A stretch of 64,000 nt of DNA from Candidatus Dormiibacterota bacterium (lineage in GTDB: Bacteria; Chloroflexota; Dormibacteria; Aeolococcales; Aeolococcaceae). Below are positions 1 through 60,229 of the stretch, piece by piece. How positions within the stretch are numbered: the first letter of the stretch is position 1; the number at the start of each line of letters is the position of its first letter. The notes beneath the pieces were generated by a model. It was not told the DNA's origin. It did no database searches and was given only the letters and a program-made list of their open reading frames with translations. The DNA lies in contig DASRDZ010000077.1 in assembly GCA_035652335.1 (NCBI GenBank), forward strand, positions 17,025-81,024, read 5' to 3'. The translations under genes and the position numbers were made by a program.

Positions 1-341
1 TGGGCTCGCTCTGGGGGCCGGTGCTGGGCGCGGTCTACCTCGGCTTCCTGCTCAGCTCCACCAACGTGCTGGTCGGCTTCCTGGCCAGCGGGGGCGGCGT
101 GGTCTTCGTGCTGCTGCTCGCGCCTGGCGGGTTCGTGCAGCTCCTGGCCGCAACCCGCGACGCCATGCTGCGGCGGGTGGCGATGCGCCATCGCGTCCAC
201 GCGCCGGGACTGATCGCCGAGGCCGCGCTCGAGGGCCGGGCGGTGACGCCGATCGCCCCGCTGCGCTCCGGCGGCGGCGGGCGCGCCCACGTGCCGGTGC
301 GCTACCGGCTCGACGCCGATGCGGCCGGAGCGCCGGAATGA
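1..341 (+). CDS. C-terminal fragment of a branched-chain amino acid (Liv-type) ABC transporter permease. The gene starts upstream of the window.
   Basis: The hydrophobic tail (...GPVLGAVYLGFLLSSTNVLVGFLASGG...) is typical of the LivM/LivH permease C-terminus. Its stop overlaps the next start (ATGA at 338-341). Confidence 0.5.
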   Translation, partial: GSLWGPVLGAVYLGFLLSSTNVLVGFLASGGGVVFVLLLAPGGFVQLLAATRDAMLRRVAMRHRVHAPGLIAEAALEGRAVTPIAPLRSGGGGRAHVPVRYRLDADAAGAPE

Positions 342-3300
342 TCGCCACCCGCCCGCCGGTGCCGTCGGAGCGTCTGGTGGCGCAGGGCGCCGCCTACACG
401 CCGCCCGCCGAGGAGGAGAACCCCTTCGCCGAAGGGCTCGACGCGCTGGAGCGCGGCCCGCGCCTCCGCGACCGCCTGGGGCTGTACGTGAGCCAGGTCA
501 ACCCCTGGTCGGTGGCCGCCGGGTACGCGGTCACGCCGCTGCTCGTGGTCGGCCTGCTCCAGCTGCTCGGCAACGCCGACTACCAGGCGCTCTTCGTGCT
601 CATCCCCCAGATGCGCCCGAGTTTCGGCTACGACCTGCAGTTTCTCGTGGTCTTCAACTACGTCCTGCAGGTGAGCCAGACCCTGGGGGCGCCGCTGATG
701 GGCTTCGTCGCCGACCGGGTGCGGCGCGTCTGGATGCTGCGCGCCGGCGGCATCGTCGCCCACCTCGGCTCCATCACCATGGGCTTCTCGGCCGGCCCGG
801 GACAGCTCCTCGCCGGACGCGCCATCGCCACCGGCGGCCAGGTGGTCGCCCAGCCCGCGGCGATGCCCCTGCTCACCGACTGCTACCCGCCGGAGCGGCG
901 GGCGCGCGCCATCGGCTTCGTCATGCAGTGCGGCAGCCTGGGCGCGGTGCTCTCGCCCATCGTCATCGGCGTCATCGCCGCGGGCTACGGGTGGCGCACC
1001 GCGTTCATCGTGCTGGGCGCCTTCTCGCTGGCGCTGACGGGGCTGTACTTCACCGTCCGCGAGCCGGTGCGGGGCGAGCAGGACCGCCTGGCCATGGGCG
1101 CCGGCGCCGACGTGGCGCAGCACGAGCAGGCGCCCGCGGGATGGAAGGAGTCCTGGCGTGCCCTCAACAGCGTGCAGACGCTGCGCCGCATCTGGTTCGC
1201 CATGCCATTCCTCTCCGCGGCGAGCTTCATCTTCGTGCTGCTGCCCATCTACTTCTCGGTGGAGTGGCATCTCGGCGCGGCCGCCTACGGCCTGGTGGCG
1301 GCGGCCGAGGCGGCGGTGACCCTCGCCGCGCAGGTGCTGGTCAGCGTGCTCACCGAGCGCATGCTCGCCGAGCGACCTGCACGGGTGATGGGGTTGGTCG
1401 GGGTGATCTGCGTCGTGCTGATGGCGGCGCTGCTGCTCTGCGCGCTGGCGCCGTCGCTCTGGATCGCCGTGCTCGCGGCGTGCGTCGCCGGCGCCTGCTC
1501 GCTGCTCGTCAACCCGGGCTTCAGCCCGCCGCTGCTGTCGGTGGTCTCGCTGGTTGCGCCGGCGCGCATCCGGGCGATGGGCATGACCAGCTACGCGCCC
1601 TGGCAGCTGCTCTCCTTCCCCATCCTCTTCTACGGGGTCGGCGCCATCCAGAGCGCGGGCTGGTCGACCCGCATGCAGCTCCTCCCCTACCTGCCCCTGT
1701 TCCTCGTCGCCGCCGTGATCCTGGCCACCGGCGGGCTGCACGTCGCCGCCGACATGCGCTCCGCTCTGGCCGCCAGCATGGCCGACGAGGAGGCGCGACG
1801 GGCCCGCCAGTCCGGACGTCGCAAGCTGCTGGTGTGCCGCGACGTCGACGTCGTCCACGAGGGTGCGCGCATCCTCTTCGGCGTCGACCTCGACGTCCAC
1901 GAGGGCGAGATCCTCGCCCTGCTCGGCACCAACGGCGCGGGCAAGTCGACGCTGCTGCGCGCCATCGCGGGCGTGCAGGAGGCGTCGAGCGGCGCCATCC
2001 TCCTCGACGGTGCGGACATCACCCACTCGCCGCCGCACCTCACCACCGAGCGCGGCGTCGCGCTGGTGCCCGGCGGGCGCGCCGTCTTCCCGCGGCTCAC
2101 CGTCGCGGAGAACCTGCGCCTGGCGGCCGCCGGCGTCGCCCCCGACGATCGCGGCTCGCGCGTCGAGGCGGTGCTCACCCTGTTCCCGGTGCTGCGCACC
2201 CGCATGGGCCAGCTCGCCGGTGACCTGAGCGGCGGCGAGCAGCAGATGCTGGCGCTCTCCCAGGCGTTGCTGCAGCACCCCCGCCTGCTCCTCGTCGACG
2301 AGATGAGCCTCGGGCTGGCGCCGATGGTGGTCGACCAGCTGCTCGACGCGCTGCGGCGCATCCACGCGGGCGGGACGACGATCGTCATCGTCGAGCAGTC
2401 CGTCAACGTCGCGCTGACCGTCGCCGACCGCGCCGTGTTCATGGAGAAGGGGCGCGTCGTCTTCGAGGGCGCCACGGCGGAGCTGCTGCAGCGGGGCGAC
2501 CTGGCGCGCAGCGTCTTCCTGGGGCAGAGCCGCGCCAGTGCGGGCGGCACGCTGAGCGGCACGGCGCGACGGCACGGCGCCGCGGATGCGGCGGACGCGG
2601 AGGTGCTCCGCGTCGACCGTCTGGGGGTGCGCTTCGGCGGCGTCGACGCGCTGCGCGAGGTGACCCTCAGCGTCGGCGGCAACGAGATCGTCGGGGTGAT
2701 CGGGCCCAACGGTGCCGGCAAGTCCACGCTCTTCGACGCCATCTCCGGGTTCGTGGCACCCTCGGCAGGAACGGTCGTCGCCTTCGGCGAGGACGTCACC
2801 GCGCTCCCCCCCGAGGCACGCGCACGCCGCGGACTGGTGCGCTCCTTCCAGAACCTGCAGCTCTTCGGCGCCATGACGGTGCGCGAGGTCATCGCCCTCG
2901 CCCTGGAGCGCACCGCCTCCGACCTGGAGGGCCTGGGCGCGGCGCTGCGGCTGCCCGGTGCGCGCCGCATGCAGCGGCGCACCGCGCGGCGCATCGACAA
3001 CCTCCTCGACGGGCTCGGGCTGCGCCCCAACGCCGAGCAGTTCATCGGCGAGCTCTCCACCGGGACGCGACGCATCGTCGACCTCGCCTGCCTGCTCGCC
3101 GCCGAGCCGCGGCTGCTGCTGCTCGACGAGCCCTCCAGCGGCCTGGCGCAGAGCGAGACCGAGGAGCTGGGTCCGCTGATCGGGCGCATCGCCAAGGAGG
3201 CGGGCTGCAGCATCCTGCTCATCGAGCACGACCTGCCACTGGTGACCGCGGTGGCGACGCGGATGGTGGCCATGGACCAGGGACACGTCATCGCCGACGG

Positions 3301-3394
3301 ACCGCCGCGCGCGGTCGTCGAGGATGCCGCGGTGGTGCGCGCCTACCTGGGCGCGTCCACGGCGGCGCTGAACCGATCGGGGAGGATCTCATGA
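338..3394 (+). CDS. Three-domain fusion. An N-terminal MFS-like polytopic membrane domain is followed by a LivF-type and then a LivG-type ABC ATPase domain.
   Basis: The N-terminal ~480 aa is hydrophobic and carries MFS-like motifs (GRAIATGG; PPERRARAIG). Walker A LLGTNGAGKST plus LSGGEQQMLAL is LivF-like. A second Walker A IGPNGAGKST plus LSTGTRRIVDLA and LLLLDEPSSGLA is LivG-like. It is one uninterrupted 1018-aa ORF. Confidence 0.7.
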   Translation: MIATRPPVPSERLVAQGAAYTPPAEEENPFAEGLDALERGPRLRDRLGLYVSQVNPWSVAAGYAVTPLLVVGLLQLLGNADYQALFVLIPQMRPSFGYDLQFLVVFNYVLQVSQTLGAPLMGFVADRVRRVWMLRAGGIVAHLGSITMGFSAGPGQLLAGRAIATGGQVVAQPAAMPLLTDCYPPERRARAIGFVMQCGSLGAVLSPIVIGVIAAGYGWRTAFIVLGAFSLALTGLYFTVREPVRGEQDRLAMGAGADVAQHEQAPAGWKESWRALNSVQTLRRIWFAMPFLSAASFIFVLLPIYFSVEWHLGAAAYGLVAAAEAAVTLAAQVLVSVLTERMLAERPARVMGLVGVICVVLMAALLLCALAPSLWIAVLAACVAGACSLLVNPGFSPPLLSVVSLVAPARIRAMGMTSYAPWQLLSFPILFYGVGAIQSAGWSTRMQLLPYLPLFLVAAVILATGGLHVAADMRSALAASMADEEARRARQSGRRKLLVCRDVDVVHEGARILFGVDLDVHEGEILALLGTNGAGKSTLLRAIAGVQEASSGAILLDGADITHSPPHLTTERGVALVPGGRAVFPRLTVAENLRLAAAGVAPDDRGSRVEAVLTLFPVLRTRMGQLAGDLSGGEQQMLALSQALLQHPRLLLVDEMSLGLAPMVVDQLLDALRRIHAGGTTIVIVEQSVNVALTVADRAVFMEKGRVVFEGATAELLQRGDLARSVFLGQSRASAGGTLSGTARRHGAADAADAEVLRVDRLGVRFGGVDALREVTLSVGGNEIVGVIGPNGAGKSTLFDAISGFVAPSAGTVVAFGEDVTALPPEARARRGLVRSFQNLQLFGAMTVREVIALALERTASDLEGLGAALRLPGARRMQRRTARRIDNLLDGLGLRPNAEQFIGELSTGTRRIVDLACLLAAEPRLLLLDEPSSGLAQSETEELGPLIGRIAKEAGCSILLIEHDLPLVTAVATRMVAMDQGHVIADGPPRAVVEDAAVVRAYLGASTAALNRSGRIS

Positions 3395-4398
3395 CGCAGC
3401 TCCGGCCGTTCTCGGCCACAACTCCGGCGCTCGACCCGGCCTCGTTCCGGGCCCGCTTCGAGGCGATGGCGGCCAACATGCAGCGGGTCATCAAGGGCAA
3501 GCCCGAGGTGGTGCGCATGGTGCTCACCGCCGTGCTCGCCGAGGGCCACGTCCTGCTGGAGGACCTGCCAGGCACCGGCAAGACGATGCTGGCGCGCAGC
3601 CTGGCCCAGACCATCGACGTCCCCACCGCGCGCGTGCAGTGCACCCCCGACCTGCTGCCCTCCGACGTCACCGGCTCGACGATCATCGACATGCAGACCA
3701 GCAACTTCGTCTTCAAGCCCGGCCCGCTCTTCACCAGCGTGCTGCTGGTCGACGAGGTCAACCGGGCCACGCCGAAGACGCAGAGCGCGTTGCTGGAAGC
3801 CATGCAGGAGCGCGCGGTCACCGTCGACGGCGTCACCCATCCGCTGCCCCGCCCCTTCCTGATGATCGCCACCCAGAACCCCATCGAGCTGGCCGGGACC
3901 TTCCCGCTCCCCGAGGCGCAGCTCGACCGCTTCCTCTTCAAGCTCTCGGTGGGCTATCCCGACCGCGGCGCCGAGGCGGAGGTGCTGCGCGCCAACATCG
4001 CCGACGAGGCGATCGCCGACCTGCGCCCCGTGGCCACCACCGGCGACGTGCTGCAGCTGGTGGAATGGGCGCGCGGGATCACCGTCAGCGAGCCGGTGAT
4101 GATGTACATCATCGACCTCTGCCAGGCGACGCGCAGCGATCCCTCGTTGCTGATCGGCGCCAGCACCCGTGCTTCGCTCGCCCTGATGCGCGCCGCGCGC
4201 GTGGTGGCCGCGTCGCAGGGACGCGAGGACGTCTACCCCGACGACGTGCGCCACGTGCTCAGCGCGGTGTTCGCCCACCGCCTGGTGCTCACCCCCGACG
4301 CGCAGCTGCGCGACGAGACCGTCGACAAGGTGGTCGAGCGCATCGTCGGCCGCGTCAAGCCGCCGCTCGGCGTGGGCGGGGAGAGCGCCCCGGCATGA
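3391..4398 (+). CDS. moxR: MoxR-family AAA+ ATPase
   Basis: Walker A LPGTGKT, LLVDEVNRA and TQNPIE motifs, with MoxR-like length and layout. The start overlaps the upstream stop (ATGA). Confidence 0.9.
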   Translation: MTQLRPFSATTPALDPASFRARFEAMAANMQRVIKGKPEVVRMVLTAVLAEGHVLLEDLPGTGKTMLARSLAQTIDVPTARVQCTPDLLPSDVTGSTIIDMQTSNFVFKPGPLFTSVLLVDEVNRATPKTQSALLEAMQERAVTVDGVTHPLPRPFLMIATQNPIELAGTFPLPEAQLDRFLFKLSVGYPDRGAEAEVLRANIADEAIADLRPVATTGDVLQLVEWARGITVSEPVMMYIIDLCQATRSDPSLLIGASTRASLALMRAARVVAASQGREDVYPDDVRHVLSAVFAHRLVLTPDAQLRDETVDKVVERIVGRVKPPLGVGGESAPA

Positions 4399-5651
4399 TC
4401 GGCGCCCGGCGCCGCGACACGGAAGCAGGAGCGGGCGCTCTCGCGCGCCTCGAACAGAGGCTCGGCCTGTCCGCCAACGGCCTCGCAGTGAGCGGCTTCG
4501 CGGTGCTGGGCTGGATCGTCGCGCGCGCGCTGGGTGGACGGGCGCTGTTCCTGCTCGTCTACGTGGCGCTGCTGCTGGTCGGCGCGGCCTGGTGGATCGC
4601 GCGGCGGCGTCGCGCCCTGCAGGCGGAGCGCTCGCAGCTCCCCACCCGCGTGCGCGAAGGACAGACGGTGCTCGCGGAGATCACCCTGCGCTCGCGCCGC
4701 CGGCTGACGTCGTTCGTCGTCGAGGAGCGGCTCGACGACGCGCTGGGGTCACCGGTGCGCGTCGCCGTCGGCACGCTCTCGCCCGATCGCGACGTGCACC
4801 ACCAGTACAGCATCCGCCCGCGGCGCCGCGGCGTGTATCGCGTCGGTCCGCTGGAGGCGGAGTGGACCGACCCCTTCGGCCTGGCGCGCAGCCGCCAGCC
4901 GCTGCTCGACGCAACCGAGATCATCGTGCACCCCTCCACCGAGGTGGTCGTCGACCGTCCCACCGCGCGCAAGTGGGAGGACCCGCCGGTGCGGCCGCCG
5001 CACAGCCGCGCCTGGCCCGCGGGGTTCGAGTTCTATGGCATGCGCGACTACGTCGTCGGCGACGACCTGCGCCGCGTCGTCTGGCGCGCGTCGGCGCGCA
5101 CCGGCCGCCTGCTGGTGCGCGAGTTCGAGCAGGGCATCACCGACCGCATCGTCGTCGTGCTCGACACCGACCGCACCTGGCACCGTCCCGGCGAGGTGTC
5201 CGACACCTTCGAGGCGGCGGTGCGCTGCGCGGCGTCGCTGGGCGTCCGCCACCTCCAGGACGGCTTCAGCGTCGGGCTGGAGTCCAACTCGGCGCGCCTG
5301 GCGGTGGACCTGCGCGGGCTGCGCGCGCGCATCCCGCTGCTCGACGAGCTGGCGCGCGTGCAGCGCGAGTCGACGTCGCTGCGCGAGTCGCTGGAGAGGC
5401 TGCTGCGGGTGCGCGCAGGCGTGGCCCACCACGTGGTGATCACGCCGCACCTCGACGCGGACAGCGCGGGACGGCTGCGGCTGCTCGTCGAGAAGGGCGG
5501 ATCGGTGCTCGTCGCCGCGGTGGTGTGGGAGGAGTCCGACCCGCTCACCGTGCGGCGCGCGGTGGAGATGGGCGCGCAGGTGGTCGAGGTGCGTCCCGGC
5601 GCGGCGCTGGGCACGGTGTTCTCGCGTGCGGTGGGCGCAGGATCACGATGA
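4395..5651 (+). CDS. DUF58-family (vWA-like) protein. It is the usual partner of MoxR.
   Basis: It has the N-terminal TM and the hallmark YxxGDDLRRVxWRASARTGRLLVREFE motif. ATGA overlap with moxR. The six-frame ORF is N-extended and was trimmed to the ATG at 4395. Confidence 0.8.
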   Translation: MIGARRRDTEAGAGALARLEQRLGLSANGLAVSGFAVLGWIVARALGGRALFLLVYVALLLVGAAWWIARRRRALQAERSQLPTRVREGQTVLAEITLRSRRRLTSFVVEERLDDALGSPVRVAVGTLSPDRDVHHQYSIRPRRRGVYRVGPLEAEWTDPFGLARSRQPLLDATEIIVHPSTEVVVDRPTARKWEDPPVRPPHSRAWPAGFEFYGMRDYVVGDDLRRVVWRASARTGRLLVREFEQGITDRIVVVLDTDRTWHRPGEVSDTFEAAVRCAASLGVRHLQDGFSVGLESNSARLAVDLRGLRARIPLLDELARVQRESTSLRESLERLLRVRAGVAHHVVITPHLDADSAGRLRLLVEKGGSVLVAAVVWEESDPLTVRRAVEMGAQVVEVRPGAALGTVFSRAVGAGSR

Positions 5652-8590
5652 GCTTGATCGGCGACCCGGTTCGCGACGTCGACGCGGTTGCCGACACGGT
5701 TCCGGTCGCCATCGCCGAGAACACAGAGGCGGTGACCAGCGTCGCCGCCGAGGACTCGCCCCCCGTCCCGCTGCTGCGCACCCTGGCCGCCGCCGCGCTG
5801 AGCACCGCCGCGGCGGCGTGGATGACCGGCGGCATCTTCCGCGGCCCGGAGGCCGCGCGCGGCCTCGGCGCCCTCGGCATCGCCGTCGCTGCCGTCCTGA
5901 CGCTGCTCGGCATGCGCACCCGCCGCACCACGCTGATGCAGCTGCTCGTCGTCCCCGCGGCGGTGGTGCTCGGCGCGCTGCTCGTCCTGCCCAGCACCGG
6001 GGGCAGCAGCACCATCCCCTCGCTGGTCGGCGACGCACTGCACGCCGGCGGGATCCTGCAGCCGCCCATCGCGCTCGACCCCGGCTGGCGGCTGGTGCTC
6101 GCCGTCCTCTTCGCGGGCATCTGCTCGGCGTCGACGACGCTGGCGCTGAGCCTCGACCGGCCCATGCTCGGGGTCGCCCTGCCGGTGCCGGTGGTGGCCG
6201 TCGCGGCACTGGTGCAGCCACCCGACGCGCAGCTCCTCTCCGTCGGCGGCGCGGTGGTGCTGCTCGCCGCGGCGCTGGCCGTCGCCTACGGCGCCGACCT
6301 CTCGCGCGCGTCGTCGCTCGGCCTCGCCTTCGAGCGCGGACGGCTGCTGCGCGGTGCGGGCCTGGTGGCCGCGCTGCTCGTCGCCGTCGCCGGCCTCGGC
6401 CAGGTGAGCGCGCTCTTCCCGCAGCCGGACACCACCCGCGTCATCCCGCCGCAGCCGCCCCAGCCCGCCCCGCCGGCGCCCGACCACGCCCTCTTCGCCG
6501 TGCGCTTCGGCGGAGCGGACACCGCGCCCCTGCGCACCGGCGTTCTGGACGTATACGACAGCAACTCCGGGGAGTGGCTGCTGCCCTCCTATGACACCTC
6601 GCGCATGGACACCGTGCGTGCACCGGCCAGCCTGCCGGGCGGCCCCGGCGGACGGGGCGTGCACGTCGAGGTGACCATCCGCGACTTCCCCGGCCACGTC
6701 CTGCCCACCGTCCCCGGCGCCAACCACCTGGGCGGCACCTCCGACACGCTGCGCGTCGACCCGCGCACCGGGCAGATCGAGCTGGCCGACCAGCCCACCT
6801 CGGCGGGCTTCGACTACACGCTCGACGCCCCGTCGCTGCCGAGCGCCCAGCAGCTGGGCAGCGCACCCAGGCCGCCGCAGTCGATGCGCGACTTCCTGGC
6901 CATCCCCGCGCCGCCACCCGGTGTGGCCAGGCTGCTCGCCGCCGCACCGGCCAACCCCTTCAACCGCATGCAGTTCCTGCGCACCGCGCTGTTCGGCAAG
7001 GTGGTGGCGGCGGGAAGCGGCGCACCCGGGCCCATCCCGGCGCAGCGCGTCGACGAGATGCTGAGCGGCGGCAAGGCCAACCCGTACGAGATCACCGCGG
7101 CCGAGGCCATGCTGGCGCGCTGGGCGGGGGTGCCCTCGCGCATCGCCTTCGGCTACGAGCCGCAGACGGCGGGCGACGGCACCTACGAGGTGCATCCGCG
7201 CGACGGCGGGGCCTGGCTGGAGACGTGGTTCCAGGGCTACGGCTGGCTGCCCATCCTGGGCGTCCCGCCCCACGCGCAGCCGACCTTCGACCGCAGCCAG
7301 CGCAACGCCGACAGCGGCATCACCCCGACCAACAACCTCGGCCTCCTGGTGTACGTCCCTGTGCAGGTGCCCACCTCGCTGGCGCTGTACCAGCAGGCGC
7401 AGTGGTGGCTGCTGCGCGCCCTGCCCGCCGCCGCCGGCGCGGCGCTGCTGGTGCTGCTGTATCCGGTGCTGCTGAAGCGGCTCCGCGCAGCACGCCGGAC
7501 GCGCTGGGCCCTGCGGCGCGGACCCGCGGAACGCCTCGCCGTCGCCTACGCCGAGTTCCGCGACGCGATGCGCGACCTTGCCGCCGGCGACCCGGTGCTG
7601 ACGCCGCTGCTCTTCCTGCGCGAGATCGAGCCCGACGACGAGCATGCCGAGCTGGCCTGGCTGGTGACGCGCGCGCTGTGGGGCGACCTGCGCCGCGACC
7701 TCCGCCCCGGCGACGCCGACGCCGCCGAGCTGCTGGCGCGCTCGGTGCGCCGCCGGGTGGTGCGCGCCCAGTCCCCCCTCAGCCGCATGCTGGCGGCGAT
7801 CGCGCGCACCTCGCTGCGCGAGCCCTACAGCAGCGAGATCCCCAACCTCTGGCCGCGGCTGCGCATCAGCGCGCCGCGCCCCACCGCGGCGCTGCCGAGG
7901 CGGCTGCTGCTGCGCCGGCGGGTCGCCGGCGCGGGCGCGACGCTGCTGCTCGTCGCCGTCTGCACCGCGCTGCTGCCGCCGGGCGGCACCACACCCACCG
8001 CGGCGCGGACGGTGACGGCGCAGCAGGACGCGACGCTGAACGCGCTCGTGCCACCCGCCGTCGGCCCGCTGGCGCTGCTGCGCCAGACGTCGGTGGAGAG
8101 CGCGTATCGCACGGCGGGCGCGCAGTCGCTGCTCACCGCCGGCCACGTCTACACCGTCCACAACGGCGACGTCATCGAGGGCTCGGTGCAGGTCTCGCTG
8201 CTGCGGCCCGACCTCGACCGCAGCTCCTCCGACCTCGTCGACGGCCTGCGCCAGCGCCTCGGCGGCGGCAACTTCGTCGCCATGACCGAGCGCGTTCCGC
8301 TCGACGACGGCAGCTGCGCCTGCCCAGGACAGTTCACCGAGGTGGCCGTCAAGGACGAGCCGCTGCGCTTCCACCAGCGCATCTGGGTCTCGGTGCTGGC
8401 CGACCAGCGCATCTACTTCTGGTTCCCGCCCGCGGCGAGCACGCTGGAGATCGTGGTGCTGCGCAGCGAGTTCCCCGCGCTCACCGCCGACGAGCTGGTG
8501 CTGACCATGAGCGACCGCCAGCACGGCGCGCCGCTCGTGGCCGTGCCGGTGCCGCCCATCGCGGCCGAGCTGCCGGGGGCGTCGCCATGA
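5648..8590 (+). CDS. Large polytopic membrane protein with a transglutaminase-like core domain
   Basis: Multi-TM N-terminus. The core segment (PYEITAAEAMLARWAGVPSRIAFGYEP...GGAWLETWFQGYGWLPILGVPP) resembles a transglutaminase-like fold, but the Cys and His positions appear substituted. ATGA overlap with DUF58 at 5648. Confidence 0.7.
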   Translation: MSLIGDPVRDVDAVADTVPVAIAENTEAVTSVAAEDSPPVPLLRTLAAAALSTAAAAWMTGGIFRGPEAARGLGALGIAVAAVLTLLGMRTRRTTLMQLLVVPAAVVLGALLVLPSTGGSSTIPSLVGDALHAGGILQPPIALDPGWRLVLAVLFAGICSASTTLALSLDRPMLGVALPVPVVAVAALVQPPDAQLLSVGGAVVLLAAALAVAYGADLSRASSLGLAFERGRLLRGAGLVAALLVAVAGLGQVSALFPQPDTTRVIPPQPPQPAPPAPDHALFAVRFGGADTAPLRTGVLDVYDSNSGEWLLPSYDTSRMDTVRAPASLPGGPGGRGVHVEVTIRDFPGHVLPTVPGANHLGGTSDTLRVDPRTGQIELADQPTSAGFDYTLDAPSLPSAQQLGSAPRPPQSMRDFLAIPAPPPGVARLLAAAPANPFNRMQFLRTALFGKVVAAGSGAPGPIPAQRVDEMLSGGKANPYEITAAEAMLARWAGVPSRIAFGYEPQTAGDGTYEVHPRDGGAWLETWFQGYGWLPILGVPPHAQPTFDRSQRNADSGITPTNNLGLLVYVPVQVPTSLALYQQAQWWLLRALPAAAGAALLVLLYPVLLKRLRAARRTRWALRRGPAERLAVAYAEFRDAMRDLAAGDPVLTPLLFLREIEPDDEHAELAWLVTRALWGDLRRDLRPGDADAAELLARSVRRRVVRAQSPLSRMLAAIARTSLREPYSSEIPNLWPRLRISAPRPTAALPRRLLLRRRVAGAGATLLLVAVCTALLPPGGTTPTAARTVTAQQDATLNALVPPAVGPLALLRQTSVESAYRTAGAQSLLTAGHVYTVHNGDVIEGSVQVSLLRPDLDRSSSDLVDGLRQRLGGGNFVAMTERVPLDDGSCACPGQFTEVAVKDEPLRFHQRIWVSVLADQRIYFWFPPAASTLEIVVLRSEFPALTADELVLTMSDRQHGAPLVAVPVPPIAAELPGASP

Positions 8591-9648
8591 TGCCGCGCCT
8601 CCGCATCCGCCGCCCGATCCTCGCTCCGGTGCGCGCACACCGCGCCCTCGTCGTGGTCGCGCTGGCGCTGACGGCCTGCGGGCCGACGCCGCCCTTCGAG
8701 CTGGCCGTGCACGAGGTGCCCGGCGACGTGGTCTACGGCGGGCAGTCGACGCCGGCACCGAGCGCCAGCGCGGGCAGCGGCCCCTCCGCGCTTGCCCCCG
8801 GTGCGCCGCCGCTCATCTACGGCGCACCGGCGCCTCCGCCGCAGGCGACGTTCGCGTCGATCCCGGCCACAACCCCCGCGCCGGTCTGCCCGGCCGCGCC
8901 CGTCGACGCCGTCCCCGCGCTGCAGGCCGACCCCTGGGCGAGCGTGCCGCCCGTCGCCACCGCCTACCTCTGGCGCACCGACGTCGCGCAGTCCTGGTAC
9001 ACCCTCGGCGGCGGCCCGAAGCTGGCCTTCCCCGCCACCTTCACCCACACCGTCGCGAACGTGAGCCCCGTCGACGCCACCACCGGCGCCTACACCTTCG
9101 ACGTGGCCACCTCCGCGGGCGGCGTCACCGGCCTGCAGAAGGTCACCGACTCCTTCGAGGTGATCCCGCCGCCGCAGGGCACCAGCGACGTGCAGGGCGT
9201 GTCGACGTCGCAGGCCGCCGGGCTCTACCTCACCGCCATGCAGACGCTCGACCCCAGCGATCCCCGGTCGCGGGTGACCAGGTTCGCGCCGCCGATCCTG
9301 CTCATGCAGTTCCCCGGCAACGAGCTTCCCACCTGGAACACGGCCGGCACCGACACCGCCACCGGCACCACCATCCAGCTGGCCGGCGCGGTGCTCGGGC
9401 ACGTCAGCGTCGACGCCTGCGGCACGGTGATCGACGCCTGGCAGGTGCATGCCACCGGGAGCCTGGTCGGCCCCAACCAGAACCTGAGCCTCGACCTCAC
9501 CTACGACGTGGCCACACAGTACGGCGGCATCATCGTGGCCGAGCAGGACGGCATCGGCGGCACCGAGCTCTCCGGCAGCGCGATGCAGAGCGTCGGCTCG
9601 CACGACGTGTCGTTCATCGCCGTGCCGCCGCAGCGGAGGGCAGGCTGA
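8587..9648 (+). CDS. Putative lipoprotein of unknown function
   Basis: Signal peptide plus lipobox (LALTACG), a Pro/Ala-rich linker and a Thr/Gly-rich extracytoplasmic domain. ATGA overlap with the upstream gene. Confidence 0.5.
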   Translation: MMPRLRIRRPILAPVRAHRALVVVALALTACGPTPPFELAVHEVPGDVVYGGQSTPAPSASAGSGPSALAPGAPPLIYGAPAPPPQATFASIPATTPAPVCPAAPVDAVPALQADPWASVPPVATAYLWRTDVAQSWYTLGGGPKLAFPATFTHTVANVSPVDATTGAYTFDVATSAGGVTGLQKVTDSFEVIPPPQGTSDVQGVSTSQAAGLYLTAMQTLDPSDPRSRVTRFAPPILLMQFPGNELPTWNTAGTDTATGTTIQLAGAVLGHVSVDACGTVIDAWQVHATGSLVGPNQNLSLDLTYDVATQYGGIIVAEQDGIGGTELSGSAMQSVGSHDVSFIAVPPQRRAG

Positions 9649-11360
9649 TGCAGCGCCCGCGCGGAACGCCCCGGCCGCCGCGCGCCGTGGCACTGGCCAA
9701 CGGCGGCGTCGCGCTGTCGATCCTCGTGGTGGTCATCGCCTTCGGGGTTGCGGTGGCGCAGATCCATCCACCGGGCATCGCCGCCTTCGCGCCCGACGTG
9801 CAGCAGCACGCCCACCAGAAGAGCCTCACAGGGCAGCAGGGCGCCTCTGCGCTGGGCGCCTCCGCTCCCACCGGCGTCCCGGCGACGGCGACGCCCGCGC
9901 CGTCGCCGACGCCGGGCGCGACGCCCACTCCCAACGCGCTCGCCGGCCGTCCCGCCCAGGTGCGCTGCTACGGCTCGCCGCCGCACCAGACCGAGGACCC
10001 GCAGTCGCCGCCCTGCCGGCAGTCGTTCCAGGGAGGCAACGGCGGCAGCACCTCGCGCGGGGTCACCGGCGACACCATCTACGTCGCCTGGCCGTCGCTG
10101 GAGATGGGCTTCCCCGGCGTGGAGTACCCCAAGTACACCCAGGACTTCGCCGACTACCTCAACTCCCACTTCGAGCTGTACGGGCGCAAGATCGCCCTGG
10201 TCAAGTACCAGGTGACCAACAGCGGCTTCAGCACCGCCACCGCCCAGAAGCAGGTGCAGGACGCCGACTACACCGCCAACCAGCTCAACGGCGCCACCGG
10301 CGTCTTCGCCTCCATCGGCTACGCGCCCGTCGGCGGCACCGCGTACTACTACTACGACCGCCTCGCCCAGGACGGCGTCCTCAGCGTCCAGTCGTCGCCG
10401 CTGCTGGAGACCGAGGCGCACCTCGCCTCCAGCCCCTACCTGTGGTCGACGCTGCCCGGCTACGACACCGTCGAGGCCAACCTCGGCGACCTCTACTGCA
10501 ACCAGCTCAAGGGACACCCGCCGCAGTACGCCGGCCAGCCGACCCCGCCCGCCACCGGCTGGGGAACGCGCAAGATCGGCGTCTACTACGAGACCACCAC
10601 CAACAGCGTGGCCGTCGACCCGCAGCCGCTGGTGAACACGCTGAACGCCTGCGGCGTGCAGGTCACCGCGCACGCGCTCAGCGACGACAGCGCCGACAAC
10701 ACCGCCGCCGTGAACCAGATGCAGCAGAGCCAGGAGACGACCATCGCCTGCCTCTGCAACGCCACCCAGCTCGGCGACCTGATGAGCGCCGCCTCCAAGC
10801 AGACCTTCTTCCCCGAATGGCTGGTGCAGAACGAGCAGTTCCTCTCCGTCGACTCGGCGGGCCCGCAGACGGCCTTCCCAACCGAGCAGCAGGGCCACGT
10901 CATCGGCATCGACTACAACAACGAGTTCCTCGACCCCAGCAACGAGTTCTGGTACCGCGCCGCCAGGGAGGCGGACTCCACGGTGACCTACAACCAGAGC
11001 TCGCAGAACGTCTACGCCTACTACCGCTACGAGGAGCTGCTGGTGCTGGCCAGCGGAATCCAGCAGGCCGGCCCCGACCTCACCCCGCAGACCTTCCAGC
11101 AGGGCCTCTACGACACCCGGTACAGCAACGTGGGCCACGGCGCGGCGCCCTACTACCAGGCCGCCGTCGGCTTCGGGCCCGGCAAGCACTCCTTCTACGA
11201 CGACGCCGCGGCCATCTGGTTCAGCACCACCGGCAACAGCTACACCGGCAACCAGGGCCAGAACGGCACCTACTGCTACTCGCACCTCGGTGACCGCTCC
11301 GCCGACTGGACGGAGCCGAGGCCACTCTTCTATGGCGGCCAGACATGTCGAGGAGGATGA
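9648..11360 (+). CDS. Membrane-anchored extracytoplasmic protein with a type-1 periplasmic-binding-protein-like (Leu/Ile/Val-binding-type) domain. It may be the solute-binding protein for the Liv-type transporter.
   Basis: N-terminal TM anchor (ALSILVVVIAFGVAVA), a Pro/Ala/Thr linker, then a domain resembling ABC substrate-binding proteins. TGATG overlap with the upstream lipoprotein stop. Confidence 0.45.
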   Translation: MQRPRGTPRPPRAVALANGGVALSILVVVIAFGVAVAQIHPPGIAAFAPDVQQHAHQKSLTGQQGASALGASAPTGVPATATPAPSPTPGATPTPNALAGRPAQVRCYGSPPHQTEDPQSPPCRQSFQGGNGGSTSRGVTGDTIYVAWPSLEMGFPGVEYPKYTQDFADYLNSHFELYGRKIALVKYQVTNSGFSTATAQKQVQDADYTANQLNGATGVFASIGYAPVGGTAYYYYDRLAQDGVLSVQSSPLLETEAHLASSPYLWSTLPGYDTVEANLGDLYCNQLKGHPPQYAGQPTPPATGWGTRKIGVYYETTTNSVAVDPQPLVNTLNACGVQVTAHALSDDSADNTAAVNQMQQSQETTIACLCNATQLGDLMSAASKQTFFPEWLVQNEQFLSVDSAGPQTAFPTEQQGHVIGIDYNNEFLDPSNEFWYRAAREADSTVTYNQSSQNVYAYYRYEELLVLASGIQQAGPDLTPQTFQQGLYDTRYSNVGHGAAPYYQAAVGFGPGKHSFYDDAAAIWFSTTGNSYTGNQGQNGTYCYSHLGDRSADWTEPRPLFYGGQTCRGG

Positions 11361-11367
11361 CGCCCGC

Positions 11368-13434
11368 ATGATCCCCACCGTCGAGGACCTGGCCAGCTCG
11401 CCGCTGGTCCACCGCTTCGGCGACGTCTTCAACCCTCCGGGCCTGACCAACTTCCTCGGCACCGTGCAGTGCGACGTCGACGTCTGCGCCTTCCGCAACC
11501 TCTGGTTCCCGCCCTTCGTCTGCGCCGACAACGCCACCGCGGGGCTCTTCGTCGACGACGTCTACTTCCCCACCACCGGCACCCCGGTCACCTTCACCTG
11601 GTACCCCGACCGCATCGAGCGCAGCGCCACCTACCGCGGCCTGCGCCTTCGCAGCACGCTGTCCCTGGCCACGCAGCGCAAGGCGGCGCTGCTGCACCTC
11701 GCCGTCACCAACGAGTCGGGCGTGCATCGCCAGGTGCGCATCCGCCTCGGGCTGCAGAGCAACGTCGGCAAGCTGCCGGGACCGTGGCTGGTCTCCCCGC
11801 CGCAGGAGACCAACAACGAGGCGTGGGTGCAGCCGGAGCGGGGCCGGGTGCACTTCGCGGCGCGGCGCAGCGACGCCCACCTGCTGCAGGGGTCGGTGCC
11901 GCATCCCGAGGGGATCGACCCCGAGAGCCTCTGGTTCACCCTGCAGCTCGACCCCGGCGAGACCTGGCAGGCGACCCTGCTCACCGCCATCGGCGAGACC
12001 GCAGGCGAGGCGGAGCGCACCTACGACGACCTCGCCGCCGACGTGCGCGGCGCGTTCGCGCGGGTCCGCGCGCAGTGGGACGAGGAGCTGCGCTGCGTCT
12101 TCACTCCGCACAACGGCCGCTACAGCGGGTGGCTGCCCGAGCTCGACACCGACGACGAGGACGTCTTCCGCCTCTACGCCATGGGCGTGCTCGGCGTCGT
12201 CTACTTCCGCCGCGACTCGCCGCACAGCCGGTACGGGCGCACCTACGTGACCCTGATGCCGCGCTACTGGCCCACGGTCACCTTCCTCTGGGACTACAGC
12301 CTCAGCTCGCTGGTGCACGCGCTGCTCGACCCCGAGGTGATGCGCGGCAACCTGGAGCGCTGGATGCGCTTCGACATCCACGACCACTTCGGCACCGAGT
12401 ACCTGAGCGGCGAGCCGGTGGGTCCCTGGTACTCGGTCAACGACTACGCCTGGATCGGCACCGCCCGCGACTACCTGCGCTGGAGCGGCGACCTGCAGTG
12501 GCTCCGCCGCGAGCTGCCCTCGGGAGACTCCGGCGCCCCCATCACCGTCGCCGAGCAGCTGGTCGCCTGCGCCACCAACTGGCTGCGCTTCCAGGGGACC
12601 AACGGCCTCGCCGACTACGGCGACATCAACAACCTGCTGGAGTGCGTCACCACCTACATCCACGAGGTGGCCAGCCTCAACGCCGCCAACGTCTTCGGCA
12701 TGCGCTTCGCGGCCGAGGCCTGCGCCGACGACCCGCTGCGGGCCGCCACCCTGAACGACTGGGCGCAGCGGCTGCTCCGGGAGGTGCAGGACCTGTACGT
12801 CGACGGCCGCGGCTACTGGCGCTCGCGCAACCCCGACGGCAGCTCCCGCGAGGTGCGCCACTGCTACGACCTGATCACCGTGCTGAACACCATCCCCGAC
12901 GACCTCAGCGCGGCCCAGCGCCGGGAGATGGCCGACTTCTGGCGGCGCGAGCTGCGCACCCCGGTGTGGATGCGGGCGCTCAGCGGCAGCGATCCCGACG
13001 CCATGCGCAACACCCGTCCCGACCACCAGTGGACGGGGGCCTACACCGCCTGGCCGGCGCTGGCGGTGACGGGCCTGTATCGGATCGGCCGCGTCGATCT
13101 CGCCTTCCCCTGGCTGCGCGGCCTGGCGCGCAGCGCCAACCAGGGGCCCTTCGCGCAGGCCCACTTCAACGAGACCGCGGTCGACCCGGACGCGGGCGGC
13201 GCGCGCAAGGCCCCGCCGGAGATGCCCTACATCACCGACTGGTGCTGCTCCTCGGGGGGCGCCTGGGTGAACATCATCGTCGAGTCGATCTTCGGCGTCC
13301 GCGCCGGGCTGCACGGCATCGAGGCGGAGCCGCAGTTCGGGGCCTTCGACCCCGGCGCCCGGCTGCGCAACCTCCGCCACCAGGGCCGCCTCTACGACGT
13401 CGACGCCCGGGGCCTCCACCCCGCCGGGAGCTGA
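11368..13434 (+). CDS. Large hypothetical protein with a probable (alpha/alpha)6-barrel glycoside-hydrolase-like domain
   Basis: 689 aa that is Trp/Tyr-rich (WPTVTFLWDYSLSSLVHALLDPEVMRGNLERWMRFDIHDHFGTEYLSG...), reminiscent of six-hairpin glycosidases. GGAGGA lies 10 nt upstream of the ATG at 11368. Confidence 0.4.
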   Translation: MIPTVEDLASSPLVHRFGDVFNPPGLTNFLGTVQCDVDVCAFRNLWFPPFVCADNATAGLFVDDVYFPTTGTPVTFTWYPDRIERSATYRGLRLRSTLSLATQRKAALLHLAVTNESGVHRQVRIRLGLQSNVGKLPGPWLVSPPQETNNEAWVQPERGRVHFAARRSDAHLLQGSVPHPEGIDPESLWFTLQLDPGETWQATLLTAIGETAGEAERTYDDLAADVRGAFARVRAQWDEELRCVFTPHNGRYSGWLPELDTDDEDVFRLYAMGVLGVVYFRRDSPHSRYGRTYVTLMPRYWPTVTFLWDYSLSSLVHALLDPEVMRGNLERWMRFDIHDHFGTEYLSGEPVGPWYSVNDYAWIGTARDYLRWSGDLQWLRRELPSGDSGAPITVAEQLVACATNWLRFQGTNGLADYGDINNLLECVTTYIHEVASLNAANVFGMRFAAEACADDPLRAATLNDWAQRLLREVQDLYVDGRGYWRSRNPDGSSREVRHCYDLITVLNTIPDDLSAAQRREMADFWRRELRTPVWMRALSGSDPDAMRNTRPDHQWTGAYTAWPALAVTGLYRIGRVDLAFPWLRGLARSANQGPFAQAHFNETAVDPDAGGARKAPPEMPYITDWCCSSGGAWVNIIVESIFGVRAGLHGIEAEPQFGAFDPGARLRNLRHQGRLYDVDARGLHPAGS

Positions 13435-13590
13435 GCCGGCCCCACCCGAGCGTGCCGTCGCGATCACGTGCGATCGCCGTCGTCGCTCCGTGACCGGGGC
13501 GCGAACGAGCGGCGAAGGGTCGGGCCGTACGGTAGCAGGGCTCCGACGCCCACCGCGCGGAAGCTACGGATCAAAGGAGGTGAAACCCAA

Positions 13591-13782
13591 ATGCTGAGCA
13601 ACCTGTATCTGCGTCTGCGTGAGCTCGTGGCCCGCGCCCAGGAGCGCGAAGAGGGCCAGGGCATGGTCGAGTACGCACTCATCCTCGTCCTCATCGCCAT
13701 CGTGGTCATCGTGATCCTGACCGTGGTGGGCAAGCAGGTCAACAACGTCTTCTCGAACATCAGCAACGGCCTGAACCAGTAG
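13591..13782 (+). CDS. flp: Flp-family type IVb pilin prepilin
   Basis: 63 aa with the classic Flp motif ...[23 protein letters not shown]... AAGGAGG RBS 10 nt upstream. Confidence 0.8.
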
Positions 13783-13804
13783 GTTCGGCTGCTGCCGAGA
13801 CGAA

Positions 13805-13840
13805 GGGCGCCGCCGGGAAACCGGCGGCGCCCTTTTCGTT
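13805..13840 (+). terminator. Rho-independent terminator after flp
   Basis: GGGCGCCGCCGG-GAAA-CCGGCGGCGCCC stem-loop followed by TTTTCGTT. Confidence 0.7.
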
Positions 13841-13852
13841 ATCCTGGGTTGC

Positions 13853-14836
13853 ATGGCCATGCAGTACCGCAACCTGGGGCGCTCCGGGCTCAAGCTGAGC
13901 GTCCTCTCCTTCGGCTCGTGGGTCACCTTCGGCCCGCAGCTGAACAGCGACCTCGCGGCCGAGTGCCTGCAGATCGCCCGTGACGCCGGCGTCAACTTCT
14001 TCGACAACGCCGAGGTCTACGCCGGCGGCCGCTCCGAGCAGATCATGGGCGAGGCGATCCGCTCGCTGGGCTGGAAGCGCCACGAGTACGCCATCTCCAC
14101 CAAGTTCTTCTGGGGGATCCACGACGCCCCCAACATGCGCAACACGCTCAATCGCAAGTACCTGATGCAGGCGATCGACGGCTCGCTGGAGCGCTTCGGG
14201 CTCGACTTCGTCGACCTCGTCTTCTGCCACCGCTCCGACCCCGACACGCCCGTCGAGGAGACCGTCTGGGCGCTGCACGACATCATCGAGCAGGGCAAGG
14301 CGGACTACTGGGGCACCTCGGAATGGCCCGCCGAGCGCATCCTCGCCGCCCACCGCTTCGCCCGCGACAACCACCTGCACGGGCCGGTCATGGAGCAGCC
14401 GCAGTACAACCTCTTCTGGCGCGACCGCGTCGAGAAGGAGTACGCGCCGGTCTACGACGAGACGGGCCTGGGGCTGACCATCTGGAGCCCGCTGGCCTCG
14501 GGGCTGCTCACCGGCAAGTACCTCGACGGCATCCCCGAGGGCAGCCGCTTCGCCCTGCGCGGCTACGACTGGCTCAAGGACACGCTGCTCACCGAGGAGA
14601 ACGTCGCCAGGGTGCGCCGTCTCAAGGACGTCGCCGACCGGCTGGGCTGCTCGCTCACCCATCTCTCGCTCGCCTGGTGCGCGCGCAACCCGCGCGTCAC
14701 CACGGTGATCACCGGGGCCAGCCGCCCCGAGCAGGTCCGCGACAACATGCAGGCGCTCGACGTCCTGCCCCTGCTCACCGACGAGGTGGTCGAGGAGATC
14801 GACGCCGCCATGGGAATGGAGCGCGCCCGGGCCTAG
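13853..14836 (+). CDS. Aldo/keto reductase, Kv-beta subunit-like
   Basis: Full-length AKR fold ([19 protein letters not shown]...[17 protein letters not shown]...), similar to Kv-beta / YajO-type AKRs. Confidence 0.9.
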
Positions 14837-60090: not shown

Positions 60091-60165
60091 GTGGAGCGGG
60101 AGACGGGGCTCGAACCCGCAACTTCAACCTTGGGAAGGTTGCACTCTACCGTTGAGTTACTCCCG
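60091..60165 (-). tRNA. tRNA-Gly (anticodon CCC)
   Basis: Reverse complement GCGGGAGTAACTCAACGGTAGAGTGCAACCTTCCCAAGGTTGAAGTTGCGGGTTCGAGCCCCGTCTCCCGCTCCA. Cloverleaf with a 7-bp acceptor, anticodon loop TTCCCAA, T-loop TTCGAGC, discriminator U and CCA. Confidence 0.85.
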
Positions 60166-60229
60166 CTCGACGGCCGGCGCCGAGTCTAGCACCCCCCGCG
60201 GCCGGGCCCCGGTGCTACCGTCCCTGCCC

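Follow-up and report, generated by a model that had tools for sequence, protein, structure and literature searches.

A conserved protein joining a major facilitator superfamily domain to LivF- and LivG-type ATPases, encoded in an ABC importer operon with a MoxR module

Introduction

Two superfamilies of transporters exceed all others in size, the ATP-binding cassette (ABC) transporters and the major facilitator superfamily (MFS), and they are normally viewed as mechanistically separate. Here we describe a gene that joins members of both in one reading frame. It lies in a 64,000-nt stretch of DNA, hereafter the window, from the uncultured Candidatus Dormiibacterota bacterium (GenBank assembly GCA_035652335.1, contig DASRDZ010000077.1, positions 17,025 to 81,024), and encodes an MFS domain followed by two ATPases of the LivF and LivG types. 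The gene stands between a Liv-type permease gene and a moxR gene.

The closest described importers are those of the HAAT family (transporters for the uptake of hydrophobic amino acids; TC 3.A.1.4), such as E. coli LivJ/K-HMGF and P. aeruginosa BraCDEFG. Like them, the present system has a LivF-type ATPase and a LivG-type one that bears the C-terminal motif of LivG, BPD_transp_2 domains of the LivH and LivM types, and a type-1, LivJ-like binding protein. In contrast to them, LivH and LivM are fused here, LivF and LivG are fused in F-then-G order, and LivF carries an MFS domain of 12 transmembrane (TM) helices. The binding protein also differs, being about 570 aa long with an N-terminal hydrophobic helix, and its window copy is invisible to Pfam. 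In E. coli the gene order is livG-livF, the reverse of F-then-G. The urea-type importer UrtABCDE is similar in that UrtE is the best single model for the first nucleotide-binding domain (NBD1) and UrtD the second best for the second (NBD2), but no urease or amidase context is found here. Two NBDs per chain also occur in M. tuberculosis DppD and OppD, which differ in belonging to the PepT family and in having no membrane domain attached.

In the ArsAB arsenite pump, the secondary-type carrier ArsB becomes ATP-driven once the ArsA ATPase binds. It is conceptually the closest precedent for the physical attachment of a membrane protein of the carrier type to an ATPase, although the analogy is of the "works-like" kind: the folds and families of ArsAB differ, its association is non-covalent, and it has neither an extra ABC permease nor a binding protein. 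LplT-Aas is an MFS protein fused to a non-transport domain. Fusions of MFS proteins to signalling domains have been catalogued, one example being the Sensor Kinase-MFS Fusion family (TC 2.A.1.34; PMC3924187). In both, as in the present protein, one terminus of the MFS core carries a functional domain that lies in the cytoplasm, but neither carries ABC ATPase domains or belongs to an ABC importer.

The genes downstream resemble the MoxR(MRP)-DUF58-transglutaminase modules of the P. aeruginosa TgpA operon, the bifidobacterial PFNA cluster (Pkb2-FN3-MoxR-DUF58-TGM) and the mycobacterial moxR1 operon, whose function has been described as unresolved (PMC12067865). As in these modules, a MoxR protein with an AAA_3 domain is followed by a DUF58 protein and a TgpA-like protein, with an extracytoplasmic protein beside them (PMC8430577; PMC12067865). 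Unlike them, the set is embedded in an ABC-transporter operon, the kinase is absent and the catalytic triad of the transglutaminase is apparently lost. Whereas the PFNA cluster has an FN3 protein, no FN3 domain was detected in the lipoprotein of this locus.

Results and Discussion

The MFS-LivF-LivG gene

An earlier reading of the window (the original prediction) had proposed a single open reading frame (ORF) of 1018 aa in which an MFS-like region of about 12 TM helices runs into LivF and then LivG. The frame is present at 338..3394 on the forward strand (Table 1), and the nature of its N-terminus and the order of its ATPases both turned out as proposed. Pfam matched MFS_1 to residues 73-420 with an E-value of 1.2e-34 (120.2 bits, cut-off 33.4), ABC_tran to two stretches (E 9e-59), and the LivG-specific tail BCA_ABC_TP_C to residues 984-1006 (29.5 bits, cut-off 25.5). 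The same domain search gave no match of BPD_transp_2 to this protein, which disposes of the alternative of a LivH- or LivM-type N-terminus. The loop motif seen in the original prediction is YPPERRARAIGF, residues 183-194, in the loop between TM4 and TM5.

Table 1. Positions in the window of the MFS-LivF-LivG gene, its domains and the neighbouring genes
Feature	Position	Strand	Description
LivH-LivM permease, 3' end	1..341	+	Last TM helix and cytoplasmic tail; remainder upstream of the window
MFS-LivF-LivG three-domain protein	338..3394	+	1018 aa, ATG start; architecture common to more than 70 homologous clusters
MFS core	518..1732	+	aa 61-465; 12 TM helices (6+6), structured central loop aa 241-279; from Pfam MFS_1 and AlphaFold2 helices
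Conserved linker helix, TM12 to NBD1	1733..1822	+	aa 466-495; D472 and A482 invariant
NBD1, LivF/UrtE-type ATPase	1823..2518	+	aa 496-727
Flexible linker between the NBDs	2519..2599	+	aa 728-754; low model confidence, poorly conserved
NBD2, LivG/UrtD-type ATPase with BCA_ABC_TP_C tail	2600..3355	+	aa 755-1006
MoxR-type AAA+ ATPase	3391..4398	+	335 aa; AAA_3 (2e-60), AAA_lid_2, bpMoxR
DUF58 protein with N-terminal TM helices	4395..5651	+	418 aa; DUF58 (5.5e-12), hydropathy, ATGA overlaps
TgpA-like polytopic membrane protein	5648..8590	+	980 aa; N-terminal TM helices
Predicted lipoprotein	8587..9648	+	353 aa; lipobox LTAC, long Pro/Ala-rich linker, globular domain
Divergent LivJ-type (type-1 periplasmic binding protein) substrate-binding protein	9648..11360	+	570 aa, unannotated ORF; from fold, Pfam matches of its family and adjacency
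700-aa cytoplasmic protein	11332..13434	+	Shares 29 nt with the end of the binding-protein gene

NCBIfam scores of the whole protein pool its two ATPase domains, and each NBD was therefore scored alone. NBD1 (aa 490-740) is of the F/E type, scoring 208 bits with UrtE and 197 with LivF against 111 with UrtD. NBD2 (aa 745-1018) is of the G/D type, with 212 bits for LivG and 181 for UrtD against 127 for UrtE. According to these separate scores, the F-then-G order is real. A UrtE score above the cut-off, obtained with the whole protein, was discarded as an artefact of pooling the two NBDs. Both ATPases keep their motifs: in NBD1 the Walker A GTNGAGKS, signature LSGGEQQ, Walker B LLLVDE and switch VEQS are invariant across the family, and in NBD2 the Walker A GPNGAGKS, signature LSTGxRR, Walker B LLLLDEP and switch IEHD are conserved.

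The AlphaFold2 (AF2) model of the 1018-aa protein (predicted local distance difference test, pLDDT, 83.8; predicted template modelling score, pTM, 0.70) has 12 TM helices in two bundles of six, a structured central loop, a linker helix and two NBDs with a disordered linker between them. From the helix pattern, the central loop between the bundles and both termini of the MFS part lie in the cytoplasm, and its C-terminus runs on into cytoplasmic NBDs. The long linker helix (aa 466-491) enters NBD1 and is modelled confidently, and its conservation exceeds that of the membrane helices. The closest folds in the PDB to the C-terminal half of the model are tandem-NBD ATPases, M. tuberculosis DppD/OppD (8wdb_D and 8j5q_D; E about 1e-23 to 1e-25).

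Distribution and genuineness of the fusion

The fusion is a real, conserved gene and not an assembly artefact. Using a word index over 5.8 billion proteins, we found more than 70 clusters with MFS_1 and two ABC_tran domains, about 970-1150 aa in length and 40-99% identical to the query, in assemblies of independent origin (JGI, ENA, NCBI and Logan). A scan of one genome per GTDB species gave dozens of loci, isolates such as Jiangella asiatica included. The hosts are mainly Actinomycetota and metagenome-assembled genomes labelled Dormibacteria, many of them from soil; the taxon labels of the nearest relatives disagree (Ca. Angelobacter, Acidobacteriota, versus Ca. Dormibacteria). A missed stop, a frameshift or a chimeric assembly joining an MFS gene to livF and livG, or a misread LivH/M-type N-terminus, thus has a negligible probability. 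The base composition of the window could speak for such an error, since its G+C content of about 74% makes long chance frames common on either strand (an antisense ORF of 994 aa is one example), but nothing else was found in its support. Against it stand the identical architecture in clusters from many assemblers and in isolate genomes, the MFS_1 match at 120 bits in a protein that BPD_transp_2 does not match, and the junction itself: the segment at about 1750-1800, where a missed stop or frameshift had been thought possible, encodes the conserved and confidently modelled linker helix. The original prediction had called the covalent joining of MFS and ABC domains rare. This stands for transporters overall, but the orthologous fusions that it suggested looking for show a recurrent family instead of an isolated case.

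The only names that these proteins bear at present are "MFS transporter", at NCBI, and "branched-chain amino acid transport ATP-binding protein", at JGI. We found no description of an MFS-Liv ATPase fusion or of a MoxR-ABC link in open-access full text and bioRxiv, and a census of Streptomyces and Myxococcus transporters described neither of them. The HAAT ABC, MFS and MoxR(MRP)/DUF58/TgpA families are known, and their combination is undescribed in that literature.

The permease and the binding protein

A LivM-type permease had been placed at the start of the window. It is indeed a Liv-type permease, but these positions hold the C-terminus of a LivH-LivM fusion (LivHM) of 746 aa, whose complete gene lies at 7764-10004 of the source contig (locus L001) and contains two stretches of BPD_transp_2. 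The N-terminal half is LivH-like over its full length; the C-terminal half is LivM-like (116 bits) and also matches UrtC and UrtB. A PDB sequence search with LivHM gave no relative.

At the other end of the operon we assign the 570-aa ORF as the binding protein, because of the Pfam matches of its family, its predicted fold and its adjacency to LivHM. Hydropathy divides it into an N-terminal hydrophobic helix (signal or anchor), a linker rich in Pro and Thr, and about 450 aa of globular domain. Peripla_BP_6 (PF13458) was matched individually by 16 of the 56 family members (best E 1.7e-11), the window copy itself giving no Pfam match, and PDB sequence searches with the protein alone or as a family profile returned nothing meaningful. 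Its AF2 model (pLDDT 83, pTM 0.80) matched leucine-binding substrate-binding proteins (SBPs) in Foldseek (4q6b and 4n0q; E about 1e-13 to 1e-14, target TM-score about 0.72), and the matches, at E about 4e-14, include Venus-flytrap domains of metabotropic glutamate receptors. A homologue adjoins LivHM in most related loci, where it is named "hypothetical" in databases.

The importer core is thus complete, with a binding protein, LivHM, and LivF- and LivG-type ATPases that have all catalytic motifs. Every NCBIfam Liv or Urt score is far under its equivalog cut-off: for the Liv models 197 versus 441 bits (LivF), 212 versus 362 (LivG) and 116 versus 366 (LivM), and for the Urt models, with domains scored alone, 208 versus 285.8 (UrtE), 181 versus 304 (UrtD) and 84 versus 296 (UrtC). 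We therefore regard the system as a distinct HAAT subfamily.

Some further features of the binding-protein family were recorded. It has an invariant pair of cysteines (C107 and C123 in the window protein, 9648-11360) and a conserved N-terminal segment before the periplasmic binding protein fold, with the consensus "PPRQxEDPQSPPC...GDNGGATSxGVT". The N-terminal helix of the window protein ends in AVA-Q, so that it could be a cleaved signal peptide and not an anchor. Two or three tandem paralogues of the binding protein occur in several genomes (L007, L009, L048 and L093). Upstream of the window, at 5895-7535 (-) of L001, an orphan SBP_bac_5 binding-protein gene is divergent from the LivHM gene; it heads a sugar-acid cluster (GntR/MR_MLE/KDPG-aldolase/PfkB), and its cognate permease genes are not nearby.

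Linkage to the MoxR module

The genes for LivHM, MFS-LivF-LivG, MoxR, DUF58, the TgpA-like protein, the lipoprotein and the binding protein are chained by overlaps of 1 to 4 nt. ATGA overlaps join the first six, including the two that had been predicted on either side of the fusion gene (ATG 338-340 with TGA 339-341, and ATG 3391-3393 with TGA 3392-3394), and the lipoprotein and binding-protein genes overlap by 1 nt. Since every junction overlaps and the binding-protein gene comes last, the transporter operon encloses the MoxR module. The moxR gene has GGAGG ahead of its start and an ATGA overlap at each end. A scan of positions 1-14500 for promoters and terminators gave no sites, and Rfam matched nothing in the leader of the operon in L001.

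The MoxR module adjoins about 20 of about 37 three-domain loci, under the labels Dormibacteraeota, Acidimicrobiales, Mycobacteriales, Frankiaceae and Jiangella asiatica. Two loci, L006 and L022, have the genes in a permuted order: MoxR, DUF58, transglutaminase, lipoprotein, LivHM, MFS-F-G. The MoxR-linked transporters cluster together in a tree of the NBDs, built by neighbour-joining without support values. MoxR linkage is a feature of a clade and the module is not an obligatory partner. The co-expression with the Liv permease and MoxR that was originally suggested is supported by the overlaps of seven genes, the synteny in distant lineages and the permuted order; that it is stoichiometric, as also proposed there, is an inference beyond the reach of sequence. 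In the clade of the window, transporter and module are organised for co-transcription and translational coupling.

The adjacency might also be incidental, two unrelated operons having come to abut. MoxR-DUF58-transglutaminase sets are widespread without this transporter, the bifidobacterial PFNA cluster being one case (PMC8430577; PMC12067865), and such an origin would fit the absence of the module from about 45% of the three-domain loci and from all class C and D loci (see below). We hold it to be improbable, because in the window the module sits between the ATPase and binding-protein genes with all junctions overlapping, the linkage is kept across different phylum-level labels and after permutation of the gene order, the MoxR-linked transporters group in the tree, and one contig has an open MFS-F-G-MoxR frame.

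That contig is L087 (ENA ERZ1758171), in which 1886-6178 is a single frame of 1430 aa covering MFS, LivF, LivG and MoxR, with a low-complexity spacer of 60 aa. It has an internal GGAAGG and ATG before the MoxR part, so that either a genuine fusion or the loss of a stop codon could account for it. This single ORF (P0029) is ambiguous and counts as weak evidence.

Proteins of the MoxR module and flanking genes

In the TgpA-like protein, Transglut_core scored 38.6 bits (cut-off 23), and TgpA_N, with 27.9 bits, fell slightly short of its cut-off of 30. We aligned the protein to the P. aeruginosa TgpA domain (6g49), in which Cys, His and Asp form the triad. The His of "HAW" is replaced by Gly and the Asp of "DPT" is missing; the Cys position lies just beyond the HMMER alignment to 6g49. 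Every orthologue from a MoxR-linked locus has, at the position of the Cys, a conserved "SPYEI"; the His gives way to Gly, Ser or Ala, and the Asp is absent. The protein is thus probably a conserved, non-catalytic pseudo-transglutaminase. The idea that a transglutaminase makes the substrate of the transporter was dropped, as the catalytic triad appears to be absent.

No family was detected in the 353-aa lipoprotein by domain search. A gene for a weak homologue of about 340-365 aa holds the same place after the TgpA-like gene in distant MoxR-linked loci, and the lipoprotein may be the counterpart of the FN3 protein in the bifidobacterial PFNA cluster.

No family matched the 700-aa ORF that follows the binding-protein gene, and chitobiose phosphorylase gave only a weak match (E 0.022). 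Homologues of this ORF are missing from all related loci, and its membership in the system is doubtful. At the equivalent position, L002 has genes for a rhamnosidase and other glycosidases. The sole RNA gene found in the window by Rfam and ARAGORN is a tRNA-Gly(CCC) at 60092-60166 (-).

Related architectures

The related operons form an architectural series. Class A/B has SBP, LivHM and MFS-F-G. Class C has SBP and a LivHM-F-G fusion without MFS. Class D, with SBP, MFS-F and LivHM-G, includes Nocardioides marmoriginsengisoli and Actinospongicola halichondriae. Two further loci have LivHM-MFS-F, G and a 600-aa protein (L088), and an SBP-like protein, LivHM and MFS-F (L089). Across four architectures (MFS-F-G; MFS-F with LivHM-G; LivHM-MFS-F with G; and a stand-alone MFS with MFS-F-G in a Liv operon) the fused MFS domain is always immediately N-terminal to LivF. 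In the operons examined we found no further NBD gene that would be available to LivHM. With no other ATPases for LivHM in any operon, LivHM and the MFS module must share one complex. In L014, L019 and L024, frames of about 1700 aa from stop to stop were considered as single LivHM-MFS-F-G chains and rejected, since the LivHM part is read in another frame.

The NBD tree was rooted with the paralogues, and with neighbour-joining and no support values it is indicative only. In it, class D is a deep clade, and class C, which has no MFS, falls among the groups that bear one, either between or within them. The placement points to a single ancestral fusion of MFS to LivF, from which the MFS domain was later lost.

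The MFS module and its stand-alone relatives

The MFS module keeps the gating motifs of its superfamily. In motif A (GxxxDRxGRR, loop 2-3), G122, D126, R127 and R130 are 94-100% conserved (98-100% for the last three), and the counterpart in loop 8-9 is present as E340/R341...R349. R161 of motif B (TM4) and the acidic residue D81 of TM1 are each 85% conserved. The "PxxxRxxxG" motifs of loops 4-5 and 10-11 are also conserved (D181 and R188; P408 and R412, the latter two invariant). No characterised MFS subfamily could be assigned, the best NCBIfam model being TIGR00893 at 68.6 bits (cut-off 395), and the sequence matches of the MFS part in the PDB were weak, at E 2e-6 or worse.

A full HMMER search of 1.84 billion representatives, with only the MFS part as query, found 81 clusters at E ≤1e-30 and 407 at ≤1e-10. 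The full-length members are mostly of about 1000 aa or of 650-800 aa, and among those of about 450 aa some are genuine MFS proteins of the same subfamily that stand alone. Two of these stand-alone relatives are unconnected to Liv genes, one of them beside MarR and an ABC exporter. Another, of 460 aa, lies in a Liv operon directly before an MFS-F-G gene (L093). Because the gating motifs are kept and free-standing members of the subfamily exist, we take the MFS module to be a working alternating-access carrier, and it is probably active.

The central-loop motif "EPxRG..DR.A.GA" and the "DI" motif after TM12 occur in the stand-alone relatives too. A role of the conserved central loop as an interface to the NBDs was considered and is weakened by this finding.

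The L093 operon (957-11286 of ENA ERZ25039483 contig_2809) has two genes of binding-protein size (636 and 646 aa), LivHM, the stand-alone MFS and MFS-LivF-LivG, which makes two MFS modules in a single ABC system.

Possible mechanism

In the reading that we favour for this specialised importer of the HAAT family, the MFS domain is an active carrier tethered to LivF and the MoxR module serves the complex. We give this reading a probability of roughly 0.6. The binding protein would hand a solute to LivHM, with import powered by the F/G heterodimer, and the MFS module would be held beside LivHM in a 1:1 complex of about 32 TM helices. We propose these two steps with moderate confidence, and the following ones with low confidence. 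The MFS carrier might handle a chemically linked second leg, in which a product or counter-solute is exported or exchanged, or the same solute flows at low affinity. Its tether might provide co-localisation and a fixed stoichiometry, and perhaps let the ATPase cycle exert reciprocal regulation. The MoxR, DUF58, pseudo-TgpA and lipoprotein set might assemble, remodel or regulate the large membrane complex, or present the ligand.

Several points weigh against this reading. The coupling grooves of the NBDs are presumably filled by LivH and LivM, which leaves an action of ATP on the MFS domain unexplained. The class C sister systems have no MFS, so this domain is dispensable for the ABC core, and about 17 three-domain loci (about 45%) and all class C and D loci are without an adjacent MoxR module. 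Family conservation showed no conserved polar residues in TM7-12 that would mark a binding site. The best-conserved surface motifs of the MFS domain (the central loop and "DIRAA") are traits of the subfamily and no evidence of an NBD interface. The neighbourhoods of the related loci indicate no single pathway, the AF2 model is of a single chain and cannot show a complex, and the unsupported NBD tree is indicative only.

The main rival is that the MFS domain no longer transports, and serves as a membrane anchor, a scaffold or a ligand sensor ("transceptor"), all flux passing through LivHM. It would then position LivF-LivG at LivHM or tune the ATPase, as in trans-inhibition. Conservation concentrated on the cytoplasmic loops, and not on the cavity-lining polar residues of TM7-12, would fit such a role, as would the lack of any characterised subfamily for the domain and the MFS-less sisters, in which a simple fusion of LivHM with F-G looks as though tethering were the point. 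Fusions of MFS domains to signalling domains are moreover on record (TC 2.A.1.34; PMC3924187). However, motif A, the Arg of motif B and the Asp of TM1 are under strong purifying selection, twelve helices would be a costly anchor for NBDs that already dock on LivHM, and the free-standing members of the subfamily outside Liv operons are presumably transporters. We consider this rival possible but rather unlikely, and by sequence it is hard to separate from an active carrier because sensors also keep gating motifs.

A direct action of ATP on the MFS domain could take two forms. The F/G dimer might power the MFS domain itself in the manner of ArsA and ArsB, either as one motor for two paths or for the MFS alone, which we regard as highly improbable. 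The NBD tether is always at the C-terminus of the MFS domain via a conserved helix, the NBDs of class D are each tethered to a membrane module of their own (MFS-F and LivHM-G) like two half-transporters, and L093 has two MFS modules for two NBDs, all of which would suit an ATP-driven carrier. MFS proteins, however, have no coupling helix of the ABC type, LivH and LivM are in every operon and need the NBD grooves, and the stand-alone relatives operate without NBDs; we know of no precedent for an ATP-driven MFS protein. Alternatively, a single ABC ATPase heterodimer might be coupled mechanically or allosterically to both LivHM and an ATP-gated or ATP-driven MFS domain, in a hybrid machine with the MoxR set as its dedicated assembly or regulatory apparatus. 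This is quite unlikely in our judgement; if true, it would give the MRP-type MoxR module its first defined client.

Significance

A conserved covalent hybrid of ABC and MFS domains is a ready system for asking whether modules of primary and secondary transport couple physically and functionally. The cluster also supplies a concrete candidate client for the MoxR-DUF58-transglutaminase operons. Both questions may be taken up in cultured carriers, namely Jiangella asiatica, Nocardioides marmoriginsengisoli and Actinospongicola halichondriae.

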